A DNA stretch of 59,614 nucleotides from Gemmatimonadota bacterium (GTDB lineage Bacteria; Gemmatimonadota; Gemmatimonadetes; Palauibacterales; Palauibacteraceae), in NCBI GenBank assembly GCA_039714435.1, contig JBDLJJ010000003.1:1-59614 (forward strand), written 5' to 3'. The notes beneath the pieces were generated by a model, which was given only the letters and a program-made list of their open reading frames with translations, was not told the origin of the DNA and did no database searches. The position numbers and the translations under genes are program-made. Shown here one piece after another: positions 48,627 through 56,175 of this stretch. Every line of letters begins with the position of its first letter. Within the stretch, counting starts at the first letter, position 1.

Positions 48627-50756
48627 ATGGCGGTGACAGGCGGGCAGAAGCTCAAGAAGCAGTTGTCCCTGTTCGATGTCTATGCTATCGGTGTGGGCGG
48701 GATGCTGAGCGCCGGTTTCTTTCTGCTTCCCGGCCTGGCCGCCGCCCAGACAGGTCCGTCAGTGGTTCTGGCGTACTTCCTGGCCGCCGTGTTCGTCCTT
48801 CCTGCTCTGTTTAGCCTGGCCGAGCTCGCCACGGCTATGCCTCGAGCTGGCGGGCCCTACTATTTCCTCGATAGAAGCCTCGGTCCCATGGTGGGCACCG
48901 TAGGCGGCTTAGGCACCTGGCTTGTCCTGGTCTTGAAAAGCGCCTTCGCCCTCATAGCGATGGGCGCCTACCTGCAGTTGTTCGCTCACTTCGATATCAA
49001 GCCGATCGCTCTTGCTCTGACAGCTGTCTTCACGATCATAGCCGCAGTCGGCACCAAGGGGTCGAGTAATCTGCAGCGCGTTCTGGTGATCGCTGTTCTG
49101 GCTCTGATAGGTGTGTTCATTATCGCCGGAGTGGTCGCGGTGTTCGGAACCAGGGAGGTGGCGATCAGCGGGGCCGATTTCCGGCCGTTTCTTACCTTCG
49201 CGGGCGAAGGCCTGTTCGGTACGGTCGGCCTCGTATTCATATCGTACGCGGGCCTCATCAAGGTCGTGAGCGTTTCCGAGGAGGTCCAGAATCCGGACCG
49301 CAATCTTCCCCTGGGCATGGGCCTGGCTGTGCTCACCGCCTCCATCGTTTTTGTCTTGGGGGTATTCCTGATGGTGGTAGCGCTCGAGCCGGCTGAATTG
49401 CACGCTACGTACACGCCGGTGGTCGATGCTGGCCTGGCCTTCATGAACTGGCTGCCGAGACCCGTGGCCATCGGCCTGCTCGCTGCGCCCGCCCTGGCTG
49501 GACTGGCTGCGACGGGGAACGCGGGGGTGCTGGCCGCGTCCCGATACCCTCTCGCCCTGGCCAGGGACCGCCTGCTGCCCTCGCCTTTCGCATCGGTAAG
49601 TCGTTTCGGAACCCCGGTTCTCGGCCTTCTGCTCACCGCGGCCCTGATGGGATTGTCTATCTGGTTCCTGGACGTGATAACCGTCGCGAAGCTGGCCAGC
49701 ACGTTCCAGCTACTGATCTTTGCTCTGATCAGCCTGGCCGTAATCGTGATGCGGGAGAGTTGGCTGGAGGCGTACGATCCCGGCTTTCGGTCTCCTCTAT
49801 ATCCCTGGATGCAAATCTTCGGCTTGCTTGGCCCCATTCTGCTTATCGCGGTGATGGGCCTGATGCCTATCGTGTTCTCCATCGGCCTGGTGGGGATCTG
49901 TCTGGGCTGGTTCTTCTTCTACGCACGCGACAGAGTGGTTCGCGACGGGGCCGTCTTTCATTGGTTCGAGCGCCTTGGAGAGCGGCGCTTCGAAGGCCTG
50001 GACACCGAGTTGCGTGACATCATGAAGGAAAAGGGAGTCCGGGAGGGAGACCCGTTCGATGAGCTCATCGCGAGGGCCGCCGTTCTGGAACTGCCCGACA
50101 ACGCCACCTTCGAAGACGCTGTGCACAGCGCCGCCGAGTTGCTGTCCGAGCGCCTTCCCGTTGCGCCGGACAGACTGGCGGACGGTTTCCTGCGCGGGAC
50201 GAGGATGGGTGCGACGCCGGTGTCGCATGGGGCCGCCCTTCCGCACCTTCGACTCGAGGAGGCGGAATTTCCGCAGCTCGTGTTGGCTCGCTGCCGGGCA
50301 GGGCTCGCCATTTCGGTCGGCGATCAGTTTGCAGACGGCGCAGAACACGGAGAACGGGTATGCGCCCTTTTCTTCCTGGTCAGCTCGGAGGCGAATCCCG
50401 GCCAGCATCTCAGGCTGTTGGCTCAGATTGCGGGCAGGGTCGACGACGAGGGATTCATGGACGAGTGGCTGGCGGCGGAACACAAGCGCGAACTCAAGCG
50501 CGCGATACTCCGCAACGAGCGTTTTCTGTCACTCCGGATCGTCGCCGGTAAGGGGTCGGAATCTCTGATCGGCAAGAAACTCATGGACGTTGACATTCCG
50601 GAGGGTGTACTCGTCGCCCTCATTCGCAGGCATGGTGAGCATCTGGTACCGCGGGGCCAGACAGAGCTGCGTGCGGGAGACAGGCTCACGATAGTGGGAG
50701 ATCCGGTCGGCATCGCGTCTGTTGCCCGCCAATACGGAGGGCCCGGCGGTTCGTGA
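48627..50756 (+). CDS. APC-family amino acid permease fused to PTS EIIA-like and TrkA-C (RCK_C) domains
   Basis: APC core (AMPRAGG.Y, SYAGL..EEV.NP.RN.P), EIIA motif GAALPH, C-terminal LIRR...VPRG.T.L..GDRL. Confidence 0.88.
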   Translation: MAVTGGQKLKKQLSLFDVYAIGVGGMLSAGFFLLPGLAAAQTGPSVVLAYFLAAVFVLPALFSLAELATAMPRAGGPYYFLDRSLGPMVGTVGGLGTWLVLVLKSAFALIAMGAYLQLFAHFDIKPIALALTAVFTIIAAVGTKGSSNLQRVLVIAVLALIGVFIIAGVVAVFGTREVAISGADFRPFLTFAGEGLFGTVGLVFISYAGLIKVVSVSEEVQNPDRNLPLGMGLAVLTASIVFVLGVFLMVVALEPAELHATYTPVVDAGLAFMNWLPRPVAIGLLAAPALAGLAATGNAGVLAASRYPLALARDRLLPSPFASVSRFGTPVLGLLLTAALMGLSIWFLDVITVAKLASTFQLLIFALISLAVIVMRESWLEAYDPGFRSPLYPWMQIFGLLGPILLIAVMGLMPIVFSIGLVGICLGWFFFYARDRVVRDGAVFHWFERLGERRFEGLDTELRDIMKEKGVREGDPFDELIARAAVLELPDNATFEDAVHSAAELLSERLPVAPDRLADGFLRGTRMGATPVSHGAALPHLRLEEAEFPQLVLARCRAGLAISVGDQFADGAEHGERVCALFFLVSSEANPGQHLRLLAQIAGRVDDEGFMDEWLAAEHKRELKRAILRNERFLSLRIVAGKGSESLIGKKLMDVDIPEGVLVALIRRHGEHLVPRGQTELRAGDRLTIVGDPVGIASVARQYGGPGGS

Positions 50757-51445
50757 CCACTCTTCCGGCCATCTCGCTACCGGTCGCCGGTACCGGTGAG
50801 CGATTTCCAGTCGGGCGCATCTTCTGCGTGGGGCGAAACTATGCCGCGCACGCAGCGGAAATGGGGGGAGACTCGGAACGGGAAGCGCCCTTTTTTTTCG
50901 CCAAGCCGGCTGCCTCTATCTGGTCTGGGTGGGAGCGGGACGAGGACCTGCCCTACCCCGTCGCCACGAGCGAACTACACCACGAGGTGGAGCTGGTCGT
51001 TGCGCTCGGATCGGGCGCGGCCGGAGTCGCCCCGGGCGAAGCCCTGGATCACGTGTGGGGATACGGCGTCGGTGTAGATCTCACGCGGCGCGACATGCAG
51101 CGCGAGGCCAAGGAAAAACGGCGCCCCTGGGCGCTCGCCAAGGGTTTCGATCACTCCGCCCCGTGCTCGGCCCTCCATCTCGTCAGCGAAATCGGCCACC
51201 CATCCGCCGGAGCGCTGGAGTTGGCGGTGAACGGAGAAACTCGCCAACAAGGCAACCTGCGAGACCAGATCTGGTCGGTCGCTGAGACACTGGCTCACCT
51301 CTCCTCGCTGATCACCCTCCTTCCCGGCGATCTGATTTTCACCGGAACACCGGCCGGCGTCTCGGAACTCAGGCCGGGCGACGCGGTTTCCTGCCGGATC
51401 GACGGTGTCGGCGCGCTGGAGTTCAGGGTTGGGGAGCGGCCTTAG
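50753..51445 (+). CDS. Fumarylacetoacetate hydrolase family protein
   Basis: CVGRNYAAHA.EMG, HHEVEL, DLTRRD, AKGFD, GDLIFTGTPAGV. Confidence 0.93.
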   Translation: MTTLPAISLPVAGTGERFPVGRIFCVGRNYAAHAAEMGGDSEREAPFFFAKPAASIWSGWERDEDLPYPVATSELHHEVELVVALGSGAAGVAPGEALDHVWGYGVGVDLTRRDMQREAKEKRRPWALAKGFDHSAPCSALHLVSEIGHPSAGALELAVNGETRQQGNLRDQIWSVAETLAHLSSLITLLPGDLIFTGTPAGVSELRPGDAVSCRIDGVGALEFRVGERP

Positions 51446-53783: not shown

Positions 53784-53858
53784 ACAGAGCCGCGCAAGAA
53801 TTACTCAATCAGACCACAGGAAAGTGCTGATCGTGCTGGAATTACGGCCTGTTCGTTA

Positions 53859-53874
53859 TGGCACAGAAGTGGCA
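53859..53874 (+). promoter_or_regulatory. Putative sigma54 promoter
   Basis: TGGCACAGAAGTGGCA (GG-N10-GC). Confidence 0.6.
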
Positions 53875-53883
53875 TAAGAGGCT

Positions 53884-53990
53884 GAGCATAAGCGGGGCGA
53901 CTATAAAATGCTCCCTCCCCTCCTGATCACTTTCCTGGTGTTGCCAACCCGCGGCCGCTAAGGGAGTCCAGGTGAGGGAGGGGCTTTTTT
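53884..53990 (+). ncRNA. Candidate sigma54-dependent small RNA (about 105 nt)
   Basis: Starts about 11 nt after the -12 GC. Has a 5' stem GAGCAT/ATGCTC, a long stem CCCCTCC..TCAC..CTGG / CCAG.GTGA.GGAGGGG, then T6. No downstream plus-strand gene. Confidence 0.55.
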
Positions 53991-54018
53991 GTTGACGGCA
54001 GCTCGGACGAGCACTCAA

Positions 54019-54723
54019 CTAACCAGTCCGCAGCGATCCGATCGTGTCCAGGTACTGGGTCAGCTCTCTCTTCAGGGCTTCCAGGGATGGGAACTCGAAC
54101 AGAACCCGGTTGTGGCTCCACACCGCCTTGTCGTATCTGAGCACGGATTCCACCCGGAAGGGGCAAACCCTGGTCCTGCCCTCGACCATGCTGAGGAGCT
54201 CGTCGGCTCCTGAGATGAGACCGGCCCCAAACGCCGTACGGCGCCCGGATTCGTTCTTGACCCCGAACTCGGTCGAAAACCAGGCAAGCCGCTTGATGTT
54301 CTCGCGCTCACGCCGATCCGCGCACAGGAAGGCAGGCGCGAACAGCTCTTGCAGCTGCGCGTAAGCGGGATTCATGAAAAACGGCAGGTGGCCGAAGATG
54401 TCGTGAAACATGTCCGGCTCAGGCGTAAAGTCGAGCTCCTGCATGTCCCGCATATAGTCCGTGACGAGAAACTCCCGACGAGCGAAGTGTCCGTACCATG
54501 GTACGGCGTCCGTATAACGCACAGCGGTCCGAACCGTCTTCCAGCCTGTCAGCGGCTCTATCCGGTCGTTCAGATAGGAGAGGGACGGAACCCGGTCAGC
54601 CGGTAGCCTGAGGAGCTCCAGTCCGTCCAGATATTCGCGGCAGGCCCACTGCCGAACGCGTGGAAGCTGCCGTTCGTACAGGATGCGCCACGTCTCGTCT
54701 GCTTGCCGACTCTGCATCGTCAT
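54019..54723 (-). CDS. phhA: Phenylalanine 4-hydroxylase (pterin-dependent aromatic amino acid hydroxylase)
   Basis: TPEPDMFHDIFGH (two His iron ligands), W.S.EFG (Glu ligand), GAGLIS; bacterial catalytic-domain size. Confidence 0.88.
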   Translation of the reverse strand: MTMQSRQADETWRILYERQLPRVRQWACREYLDGLELLRLPADRVPSLSYLNDRIEPLTGWKTVRTAVRYTDAVPWYGHFARREFLVTDYMRDMQELDFTPEPDMFHDIFGHLPFFMNPAYAQLQELFAPAFLCADRRERENIKRLAWFSTEFGVKNESGRRTAFGAGLISGADELLSMVEGRTRVCPFRVESVLRYDKAVWSHNRVLFEFPSLEALKRELTQYLDTIGSLRTG

Positions 54724-54740
54724 CCTTGGGTTGTAGACAC

Positions 54741-54771
54741 AAAAAAAGAGCCACGGGGAGATCCGTGGCTC
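54741..54771 (-). terminator. Attenuator terminator upstream of phhA
   Basis: Minus strand GAGCCACGG-ATCTCC-CCGTGGCTC-TTTTTTT, ending 17 nt before the phhA ATG. Confidence 0.88.
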
Positions 54772-54804
54772 GGGTGCGCTGTCGCTCAGTATCGGTCTAC
54801 TTCG

Positions 54805-54888
54805 CTACATGAATACACCTCCGGCCACGGCGGCGGGATAGCCGGCGTAGGTATAGCTCTGGATGGCGTAATAGCGCTGTGCTGTCAT
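54805..54888 (-). CDS. Tyr-rich leader peptide (27 aa) of the phhA attenuator
   Basis: ATG ACA GCA CAG CGC TAT TAC GCC ATC CAG AGC TAT ACC TAC GCC GGC TAT ... TAG = MTAQRYYAIQSYTYAGYPAAVAGGVFM, with 5 Tyr in codons 6-17. Confidence 0.8.
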   Translation of the reverse strand: MTAQRYYAIQSYTYAGYPAAVAGGVFM

Positions 54889-54942
54889 GCGCCCAGGTTG
54901 GCTGGTTGGCGCGTCGCGCGCAAGCCTGGAGCGCGGCGGCTT

Positions 54943-56175
54943 CTAGTTCGCAAGGTCGAACCATGGACGCAGGCGTACGCCCAGCCAGGTGCCCGGCAGG
55001 GCCGAGGCGATCCACAGCCAGCCGTGCACGCTGGTCGAGGCCACCCCGGAGAAGAAGGCGCCGATCGTACAGCCGTAAGCGATGCGTGACCCGTAGCCCA
55101 GCATAAGTCCGCCTACCACAGCGGCCAGCAGCGAGCGGGCCGAGATACGCAGACCCGGCCGGAACCTGCCCCGCACGGCGGATGTGGCCAGGGCGCCGAG
55201 GACGATTCCGGCATCCATTACCGATATTCGGTCACCGAGAACGGGACCCGCTACAGCCGCGCTCTGAAATCCGGCAGTCCAGAAGGCGTTCGAACTCGGA
55301 TCCCAACCCACGAGCTGGGCTAGCTTGGCTCCCCACAGCGTGAAGCCCCAGGTCACCGTCCACGGATGTCCGGCCAGCAGCAGCGTGGCGAAGTTGAGCA
55401 GCGCCAAGCCCACGGCCCCCAGGAGCAGGAGGCGAAAGGCAGGGTTCCTTAGGAGCCGCGTGGCCCCGACCAGTGGCGGACCTGAATCCGGAACGCTGCC
55501 CGGGCTGCCGCTGCTCGGGCTGCGGCCGGAATCGTGGCCGGAGCGCCGGCGTGCCCAGCGCACGGCGAGCCCGATCAGTCCGAGCGCCCCGAGTTGCAGG
55601 CCCACCGCGGCCGGCCAGCCCAGCGTGTGGCCCAGCGAGATCGGGCCCGTGGCCGGCAGGCGGGCCCACTCGGTCATGTGCAGACTGGCCCAGAAGGCTC
55701 CCCCACAGAATGCGCCCAGGGTAATGAGCATTCGCGTATTGCCGCCGCCGACGCTGAACAACGTTCCGGATCCGCAGCCTCCGCCGAGCTGCATTCCGAG
55801 GCCGAACATGAACGCTCCCACCACGACCTGCAGGCTGACCGGGGCCGTCGCACCCCCAGCCGGCTGGCCGAACACGCTCCCCTGGGCCAGGGGGACGGCG
55901 AACAGGATCGTGGCCAGGCCCAGCATGACGAGCTGCGCGTACACAGCCGAATAATCACGCACCAGAATGGCGCGCCGATACCCGTAGGTGAAGCCGAAGG
56001 AGGTCACGTACAGCACCAATCCGAGTGCGGCGCCGACCGCCAGAAGGCTGGCGTGCCGCCAGCCGTACTGGGCTAGAAGTACGGTGCCCCAGAGCAGAAC
56101 GCCGGCGCTGATGGAAAGCGGGACCCACTGCACCCGACTGCTGGCGGAAACAGCGCTCGAGCGGACGGCGCTCAC
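54943..56175 (-). CDS. YeeE/YedE (TsuA-like) sulfur-compound transporter
   Basis: FGLGMQLGGGCGSGTL and GYGSRIAYGCTIGAFFSG motifs. GTG start overlaps the amidase stop (GTGA). Confidence 0.88.
   Translation of the reverse strand: MSAVRSSAVSASSRVQWVPLSISAGVLLWGTVLLAQYGWRHASLLAVGAALGLVLYVTSFGFTYGYRRAILVRDYSAVYAQLVMLGLATILFAVPLAQGSVFGQPAGGATAPVSLQVVVGAFMFGLGMQLGGGCGSGTLFSVGGGNTRMLITLGAFCGGAFWASLHMTEWARLPATGPISLGHTLGWPAAVGLQLGALGLIGLAVRWARRRSGHDSGRSPSSGSPGSVPDSGPPLVGATRLLRNPAFRLLLLGAVGLALLNFATLLLAGHPWTVTWGFTLWGAKLAQLVGWDPSSNAFWTAGFQSAAVAGPVLGDRISVMDAGIVLGALATSAVRGRFRPGLRISARSLLAAVVGGLMLGYGSRIAYGCTIGAFFSGVASTSVHGWLWIASALPGTWLGVRLRPWFDLAN

Follow-up and report, generated by a model that had tools for sequence, protein, structure and literature searches.

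Results

Elements upstream of phhA

We analysed a 59,614-nt stretch of DNA from a Gemmatimonadota bacterium (assembly GCA_039714435.1, contig JBDLJJ010000003.1; hereafter the window), and in particular the region upstream of a phhA-like gene, all elements of which lie on the minus strand of the window. The gene (54019..54723) encodes a pterin-dependent aromatic amino acid hydroxylase of 234 amino acids with a Pfam Biopterin_H domain. It is preceded by a short open reading frame (ORF) at 54805..54888, which runs from an ATG at 54888 to a TAG at 54807-54805 and encodes MTAQRYYAIQSYTYAGYPAAVAGGVFM in 27 codons plus the stop. Five of these 27 residues are tyrosine (Tyr), specified by codons 6 and 7 (54873-54868), 12 (54855-54853), 14 (54849-54847) and 17 (54840-54838). 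An intrinsic terminator (54741..54771) starts 33 nt past the leader stop and consists of a stem of 9 pairs, 7 of them G-C (54771-54763 / 54756-54748; -17.3 kcal/mol), a 6-nt loop (54762-54757) and a run of seven T residues (54747-54741), with 18 nt between the T-run and the start of the phhA ORF (54723). It is the sole terminator-like site in 54600-55100, where shuffled sequences gave a mean of 0.1. A first-pass annotation of this DNA had reported a 27-residue leader with five Tyr codons followed by a 9-bp hairpin and U7 before phhA, and all of these elements were found where it had placed them. It had also noted that the leader lacks a Shine-Dalgarno sequence, and none was found before the ATG in the window sequence.

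Terminators of this kind are rare in the window's own genome (63% G+C), in which only 67 sites combining a hairpin with T5 were found in 2.87 Mb; among these, the phhA terminator alone is preceded by a clear short ORF with an amino-acid run. Searching 53800-55100 with the 4227 models of Rfam 15 returned three chance-level matches only (E 3.3 to 9.9) and no leader family, and the T-box model (RF00230) gave no match at E up to 10 in the same interval. A search of sequencing runs gave no RNA run that contains this stretch; one DNA run, perhaps from the source sample, contains all of it, and others contain small parts.

The first-pass annotation had further proposed that a leader segment pairs with the 5' arm of the terminator to form an antiterminator. 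CCGTGGC (54830-54824) is indeed complementary to GCCACGG in the terminator 5' arm (54769-54763). The antiterminator 5' strand (region 2, CCGTGGCCGG, 54821..54830) lies within leader codons 20-23, and its partner (region 3, 54763..54773) overlaps the terminator 5' arm. When the transcript was cut before the terminator 3' arm, the minimum free energy (MFE) structure paired 54830-54821 with 54773-54763, and the duplex of regions 2 and 3 had an energy of -23.0 kcal/mol (z -3.5) that none of 300 dinucleotide shuffles reached, in agreement with that proposal. In silico folding of the window transcript with a ribosome in place showed the antiterminator pairing when the ribosome stood at Tyr codon 14 and did not show it when the ribosome stood at the stop codon. 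A further hairpin (1:2, 54811..54859), which would act as an anti-antiterminator, covers Tyr codons 12, 14 and 17 with its 5' strand and sequesters the antiterminator strand with its 3' strand; it was present in the MFE structure of the full 231-nt intergenic RNA and also in that with a ribosome at codon 6.

Tyr-run leaders upstream of phhA orthologues

A search for Tyr-rich ORFs upstream of phhA orthologues had been named beforehand as the decisive check of the first-pass annotation. We found 79 loci with relatives of the hydroxylase, at no more than about 62% identity over the best aligned segment, and the start codon could be placed for 72. A Tyr leader was defined as a short ORF with at least three Tyr in an 8-residue window, no more than 400 nt upstream of phhA, and such an ORF was present in 28 loci and in the window, one of them (L050) being doubtful. 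When the 72 upstream regions (at least 300 nt each) were scanned, at least three Tyr were found in 29 of them on the coding strand and at least four in 22, compared with 2 and 0 on the reverse complement. Other rare residues gave far lower counts on the forward strand of the same regions (Phe 7, His 4, Cys 3, Met 2 and Trp 0). Tyr-rich ORFs are thus enriched before phhA orthologues (29 of 72 regions vs 2 of 72 on the reverse strand), as the annotation had predicted.

The leader loci were found in Chloroflexota, Acidimicrobiia, Gemmatimonadota, Acidobacteriota and one DPANN archaeon, and example peptides are MASRSHHYSYYYYT, MALQNRSRYYAYYYG and MHTLRNHHRFYYYS. Leader peptides of different clades are unrelated outside the Tyr run, and between close relatives TAT and TAC are swapped while Tyr is kept. 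Two Gemmatimonadota relatives align to the window without gaps through the leader, with equal length and frame and with Tyr-Tyr-Tyr at codons 12-14; in this three-way alignment the block G[T/C]GGCCGGAG at region 2 is invariant. On a quick tree of PhhA, the leader state occurs in at least three well-separated clades and in four bacterial phyla.

Loci without the leader look different. In some of them, such as L008:2031-2712 (-) and L009:2116-2850 (-), phhA is divergent from pterin-related genes (FolB and HPPK in L008, a short-chain dehydrogenase in L009), and this class shows a conserved promoter-like block, TTGAC...GTGATA(A/C)CAT, just upstream of phhA. This suggests that phhA is regulated in these loci by another mode that is not based on an RNA leader.

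Terminators and antiterminator pairing across the leader loci

Past the leader stop, 24 of the 29 leader loci have a hairpin with a T-run that begins 19-46 nt downstream. In two of the other five (L039 and L045), a separate routine found perfect-stem terminators; the same routine found only 2 in the non-leader loci. Region 2 was placed 6-32 nt downstream of the Tyr run across loci.

The last 42 nt of each leader were then paired with the terminator 5' arm, and the duplex energy summed over the 24 loci was reached by none of 300 dinucleotide shuffles (mean z -1.3). When leaders and terminators were swapped between loci, the true value was reached in 2 of 20000 permutations with 16 representatives and in none of 20000 with 19 representatives; with coarse clustering into 5 groups, 636 of 20000 permutations were as low. 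Differences in G+C content between loci could inflate the partner permutation, and the per-locus dinucleotide-shuffle control was added for this reason. Where the terminator arm differs between lineages, the leader segment differs to match: CCCGCACCGG goes with CCGGTGCCGGG in L049, for instance, and CCCGTACC with GGTACGGGG in L032. In transcripts cut before the terminator 3' arm, the mean probability that the 5' arm is paired upstream was 0.73 with the ribosome at the Tyr run and 0.40 with the ribosome at the stop codon, compared with 0.56 when the spacer was shuffled.

Promoters and the start of the leader

A putative promoter of the window (54895..54923) consists of TTGCGC (54923-54918), a 17-nt spacer and CAACCT (54900-54895), and is separated from the leader ATG by 6 nt. 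Two relatives from the same family share this geometry, and their hexamers are better (TTGACG-17-TAGCCT-6-ATG and TTGACG-17-TAGCGT-6-ATG). Furthermore, a sigma-70-like promoter matching at least 8 of 12 consensus positions, with its -10 element ending 4-13 nt before the leader ATG, was found in 19 of 28 leader loci compared with 3.9% of random positions; because of this spacing, the leader ORFs look leaderless. The window's own leader transcript is probably leaderless or nearly so, to judge from the geometry that it shares with its relatives.

T-box elements in place of the leader

In two loci, a T-box (RF00230) stands before the phhA orthologue in place of the leader ORF (L006:2508-2732, E 1.9e-9, and L038:2585-2865, E 3.5e-10). 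Both elements contain AGAGA and GGUGGUACCGCG blocks, and both have UAC, a Tyr codon, at the aligned specifier position. On the quick PhhA tree the two loci form a pair nested in the large Anaerolineales leader clade. Scanning 20 non-leader loci with Rfam at the gathering threshold gave no match, and the two T-boxes were detected by E-value threshold only.

The hydroxylase and its metabolic context

The phhA product matches PF00351 (Biopterin_H) with E 1.7e-32 and 113.2 bits against a cut-off of 22.7. Its best match among solved relatives is the phenylalanine hydroxylase (PAH) of Chromobacterium, 1ltu (E 5e-35), with which its FHDxFGH block (here FHDIFGH) and xEFG block (here TEFG) align at identical blocks. 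We take the His-x4-His and Glu residues of these blocks to be the iron ligands. The protein most resembles the monomeric PAHs of bacteria, and tryptophan and tyrosine hydroxylases also match at E ~1e-25. From homology, it appears to belong to a divergent short PAH clade, with phenylalanine (Phe) as the probable substrate and Tyr as the probable product.

The annotated ATG of phhA at 54723 overlaps an AAGGA sequence (54727-54723), from which a second in-frame ATG at 54717 is spaced normally; the true start may be this second ATG, which would give a protein of 232 amino acids. Just 3' of the phhA stop lies a long imperfect hairpin (CCCCTCCCTC ... GAGGGGAGGG) followed by ATTTTAT (53905-53990, minus strand), whose fold is no better than that of shuffled sequences (z -0.8). 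Given this hairpin, phhA may be monocistronic. Upstream, a YeeE/Sulf_transp-family gene on the same strand ends at 54943, with the leader ATG 55 nt further on and the terminator hairpin 172 nt past the end of the gene, and a gene of the FAH family lies at 50753-51445, 2.6 kb from phhA.

The first-pass annotation had suggested checking whether the genome lacks tyrA. With TyrA defined as a match to PF02153 over the cut-off, profile searches of the window's own genome, which is 94% complete, found no TyrA-family gene, as well as no prephenate dehydratase. Neither homogentisate dioxygenase nor an HPPD match above the cut-off was found in the same genome, which does encode chorismate synthase and a pterin-4a-carbinolamine dehydratase (PCD). 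The annotation's view that phhA is biosynthetic here rather than catabolic, as it is in Pseudomonas, fits better with this gene content, in which TyrA, prephenate dehydratase and the homogentisate pathway are all absent. Because prephenate dehydratase is missing, Phe is probably imported or otherwise acquired.

Genome searches were extended to 59 genomes besides the window's own, which contain 55 of the 72 loci whose start could be placed (L043 and L072 share one genome). TyrA was found in 4 of 28 leader genomes, in neither of the 2 T-box genomes and in 28 of 30 non-leader genomes. Prephenate dehydratase was found in 1 of 26 leader genomes, again in neither of the 2 T-box genomes, and in 19 of 31 non-leader genomes. 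The window's own genome is counted among the 28 but not among the 26, and the genome of the doubtful L050 is placed among the 31 non-leader genomes. The absences of both enzymes also hold in three chromosome records (L015, L051 and L054). Among the leader genomes tested, PCD was present in 5 of 5 and chorismate synthase in 2 of 5. Counted as independent contrasts on the tree, about two or three support the association of the leader with lack of TyrA (Acidimicrobiia, the Anaerolineales clade and Gemmatimonadota) and one (L005) goes against it. Auxotrophy for both Phe and Tyr may be widespread in the Gemmatimonadota lineage of the window.

Discussion

A probable Tyr-responsive attenuator of phenylalanine hydroxylase

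Taking the comparative and folding evidence together, we consider it highly probable that the phhA leader is a Tyr-specific ribosome-mediated transcription attenuator that controls phenylalanine hydroxylase, the cell's route to Tyr. The sequence elements, their conservation and their mutually exclusive pairings were observed in silico. From these we infer that the leader is translated, where its transcription starts, that it responds to Tyr and what the enzyme makes.

In the mechanism that we propose, the transcript would begin at the leader AUG or only a few bases away from it, and a ribosome would start on the 27-codon leader. When charged tRNA-Tyr is plentiful, the ribosome would pass codons 12-17, move over region 2 (54830-54821) and reach the stop codon. 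Region 2 would then be covered, or re-captured by hairpin 1:2, so that the 9-bp terminator with U7 could form and transcription would stop before phhA. When charged tRNA-Tyr is scarce, the ribosome would stall at the Tyr codons, mainly at 12 and 14 (12-14 in the family), which would melt the 5' strand of hairpin 1:2 and leave region 2 free. Free region 2 would capture the emerging 5' arm of the terminator, no terminator would form and phhA would be transcribed. PhhA, together with the PCD of the genome, would then convert Phe, probably imported, to Tyr.

Several observations weigh against this proposal, and the first group concerns RNA folding. On the truncated transcript the antiterminator depended on the ribosome position; on the full transcript the terminator fold (-54.9 kcal/mol, compared with -50.1 kcal/mol for the antiterminator fold) won at every ribosome position tried. 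Since the terminator fold always wins at equilibrium, read-through would have to be kinetic, as is usual for attenuators. In addition, the antiterminator was still in the MFE structure of the truncated window transcript when no ribosome was present, and equilibrium folding therefore does not predict a default-off state in the absence of translation; across loci, the mean probability of upstream pairing of the 5' arm was 0.68 under the same condition. The pairing of leader and terminator is weak in many Anaerolineales loci (z +0.6 to -1.8). The annotation had described a full 1:2 / 2:3 / 3:4 layout, of which pairings 3:4 and 2:3 are supported both in the window and statistically across loci, but hairpin 1:2 is predicted in the window and is not conserved across loci, with a mean z of -0.27 and 24 of 300 shuffle sums as low.

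A second group concerns the start of transcription. The annotation's suggestion that the leader may be leaderless is supported by the promoter geometry of the relatives, but the window's own hexamers are poor (5/12 to consensus), a promoter scan tool reported no promoter there, and the leader could be transcribed by read-through from the upstream YeeE-family gene, whose stop lies at 54943.

The remaining points concern the enzyme, the T-boxes and the genomes. The phhA product does not reach the cut-offs of the NCBIfam phenylalanine 4-monooxygenase equivalogs (184.9 vs 247 for NF008877 and 168.5 vs 264.75 for TIGR01267). The T-boxes of L006 and L038 score 48 and 51 bits compared with the Rfam gathering score of 93, and the base after their UAC is C, not the usual purine. 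TyrA is present in the leader genomes of L005, L045 and L071, in addition to that of the doubtful L050. In the window's order, TyrA was found in only 40 of 145 genomes and this phhA in only 4; absence of TyrA therefore characterises the lineage rather than the leader carriers, and the phhA-leader unit is a sporadic addition. Finally, most of the genomes compared are incomplete metagenome-assembled genomes, and the relatives are not independent.

Alternative explanations

Some of these points are shared by a different explanation, which we regard as improbable, in which the leader ORF is translated but does not sense Tyr. It could report translation capacity or stress, or act via Rho, mRNA stability or re-initiation, and the Tyr run could be a feature of the peptide, such as a nascent-chain arrest motif. 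A leader with no Shine-Dalgarno sequence, the failure of equilibrium folding alone to give an on/off switch and the lack of conservation of hairpin 1:2 would all be compatible with this, as would the conservation within clades of the peptide that follows the Tyr run (for example AETTPAALPC in Anaerolineales). However, only the Tyr run is common to the phyla, while the flanking peptide is wholly different between clades and TAT and TAC are interchanged. The UAC T-box that replaces the leader in a nested clade, the production of Tyr expected of the enzyme and the genomes without TyrA argue in the same direction.

It is also possible, at a still lower probability, that PhhA is catabolic or acts on another substrate (Trp, or Phe by meta-hydroxylation) and that the leader tunes it for a reason besides Tyr supply. 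The score under the NCBIfam cut-offs, the matches to tryptophan and tyrosine hydroxylases and the FAH-family gene 2.6 kb away could be read in this way. What stands against it is that the best matches are monomeric bacterial PAHs, that the window's genome lacks homogentisate dioxygenase and any HPPD over the cut-off, that the enriched codons are those of Tyr and not of Phe or Trp, and that TyrA is absent.

We attach very little weight to the idea that the Tyr-rich peptide is itself the product, either as a small protein or as a precursor modified by the hydroxylase, with the hairpin merely separating two genes. ORF length is kept at 27 codons in the three Gemmatimonadota loci and the hydroxylase gene is adjacent, but one would hardly expect a terminator that looks efficient to separate a precursor from its enzyme, conservation of the peptide between clades is limited to the Tyr run, there are no neighbouring genes for maturation or export, and the T-box replacement argues for regulation. 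Least credible of all is a coincidence in which the hairpin terminates the upstream YeeE-family gene, which ends 172 nt before it on the same strand, and the Tyr-rich ORF behind a weak promoter match is a chance frame; this is contradicted by the comparative data, in which the ORF-plus-terminator unit stands elsewhere behind unrelated genes and good promoters and the Tyr enrichment is 29 vs 2.

Relation to known systems

The principle of leader-peptide attenuation, known for trpL, pheL and hisL in Proteobacteria and trpL in Corynebacterium, is summarised in the accessible part of PMC11802643. The Tyr-responsive attenuator proposed here resembles these classical systems in its short ORF with a run of codons for the end product, its intrinsic terminator, its antiterminator that uses the terminator 5' arm and its dependence on ribosome position. 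It differs in that the codons are those of Tyr and the target is a hydroxylase that interconverts two amino acids rather than an operon of the chorismate pathway. In addition, the antiterminator strand lies within the leader ORF, upstream of the stop codon, and the leader ORF appears to be leaderless; the carriers are Gemmatimonadota, Chloroflexota, Acidimicrobiia and Acidobacteriota, and no Rfam leader family matches.

In the Bacillus cereus group, phenylalanine-4-hydroxylase is preceded by a Tyr T-box, described in the available text of PMC2494555. There too a gene of the PAH family answers to tRNA charging, and its role is by implication biosynthetic; UAC T-boxes also precede two of the orthologues studied here. 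A T-box works without translation, through direct binding of uncharged tRNA to the RNA, and the window has none. The aroR leader peptide (Phe-Tyr-Phe) upstream of aroF in Corynebacterium glutamicum likewise carries aromatic codons and attenuates a gene for aromatic amino acids; according to the accessible part of PMC11802643, its response is to Phe limitation, with no effect of Tyr availability. Unlike the phhA leader, it has one Tyr codon and not a run, and its target is a DAHP synthase. Leaderless polycysteine short ORFs act as Cys-responsive attenuators in mycobacteria, according to the portion of 10.1101/834739 consulted. Like the phhA leader as predicted here, they combine a leaderless start, a codon run for a single amino acid and control over genes of that amino acid's metabolism, in another phylum and for another amino acid.

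PAH is the main route to Tyr in Dyella japonica, which lacks prephenate/arogenate dehydrogenase; this rests on fitness data reported in the accessible part of 10.1101/741918. Unlike D. japonica, the phhA-leader genomes also lack prephenate dehydratase, so that Phe itself is probably acquired, and RNA-level control is not mentioned for Dyella in that part of the source. Tyr is listed as T-box-regulated and not as attenuator-regulated in the available text of PMC1262725, the new upstream-ORF attenuators in that of PMC8632094 concern cysS and aroF, with no Tyr case among them, and a term search of the accessible text of PMC2965389 did not return the word tyrosine. The first-pass annotation had stated that it knew of no Tyr leader on phhA. 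In our full-text literature searches, with most subscription journals and supplements outside their scope, a Tyr-codon leader was found neither on phhA nor on any other gene, but a biosynthetic PAH regulated by tRNA-Tyr is not in itself new, given the B. cereus group T-box in the accessible part of PMC2494555.

If the attenuator operates as proposed, Tyr would join the amino acids that are sensed by leader-peptide attenuation, and the leaders would form a new family of cis-regulatory RNAs outside Rfam 15. They would also provide regulatory evidence for the function of the divergent short PAH clade. Many uncultured Chloroflexota, Acidimicrobiia, Gemmatimonadota and others would then make Tyr from acquired Phe and not from prephenate, which would change what such genomes are taken to say about auxotrophy and cross-feeding. 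With a leader peptide on the gene in one lineage and a T-box on its orthologue in a sister lineage, charging of tRNA-Tyr would be sensed by two unrelated devices, a clean natural case of one regulator replacing another. The predicted leaderless start would extend leaderless upstream-ORF attenuation beyond the mycobacteria.

A more speculative proposal, which we think unlikely, is that the Tyr-leader/phhA unit (promoter, leaderless Tyr-run ORF, antiterminator/terminator and hydroxylase) is a self-contained module that has spread horizontally among amino-acid-auxotrophic uncultured lineages, reaching at least four bacterial phyla and perhaps also a DPANN archaeon. In the archaeal locus (L054:2861-2911, chromosome of Archaeon GW2011_AR15), a 16-codon ORF encoding MHKPAAQSKYSYYYYC starts 23 nt past a TTTAAATA box, and 80 nt separate it from the archaeal phhA orthologue. 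Folding of this locus gave a hairpin past the ORF stop and no clear terminator or switch. The ORF may be a leader-peptide control element; if functional, it would represent a ribosome-mediated amino-acid attenuator in Archaea.

Other short ORFs before terminators in the genome

The window's own genome does not seem to use leader attenuation widely. A genome-wide scan for leaders with amino-acid runs before terminators gave four rows beyond the phhA leader. One, an Arg-rich ORF, is read in a different frame ahead of the phhA terminator itself, and we took it to be spurious. The short ORFs of the other rows, on contigs C28 and C90, have no obvious related downstream gene. The first is a Cys-rich ORF (C28:19423-19495, plus strand) with 4 Cys in 7 residues, which stands before a terminator-like hairpin and is without a downstream gene. 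The second (C90:164-266, plus strand) contains 2 Trp and 3 Cys and passes both the Trp and the Cys threshold, so that it fills two rows; an ORF of 109 codons follows it.

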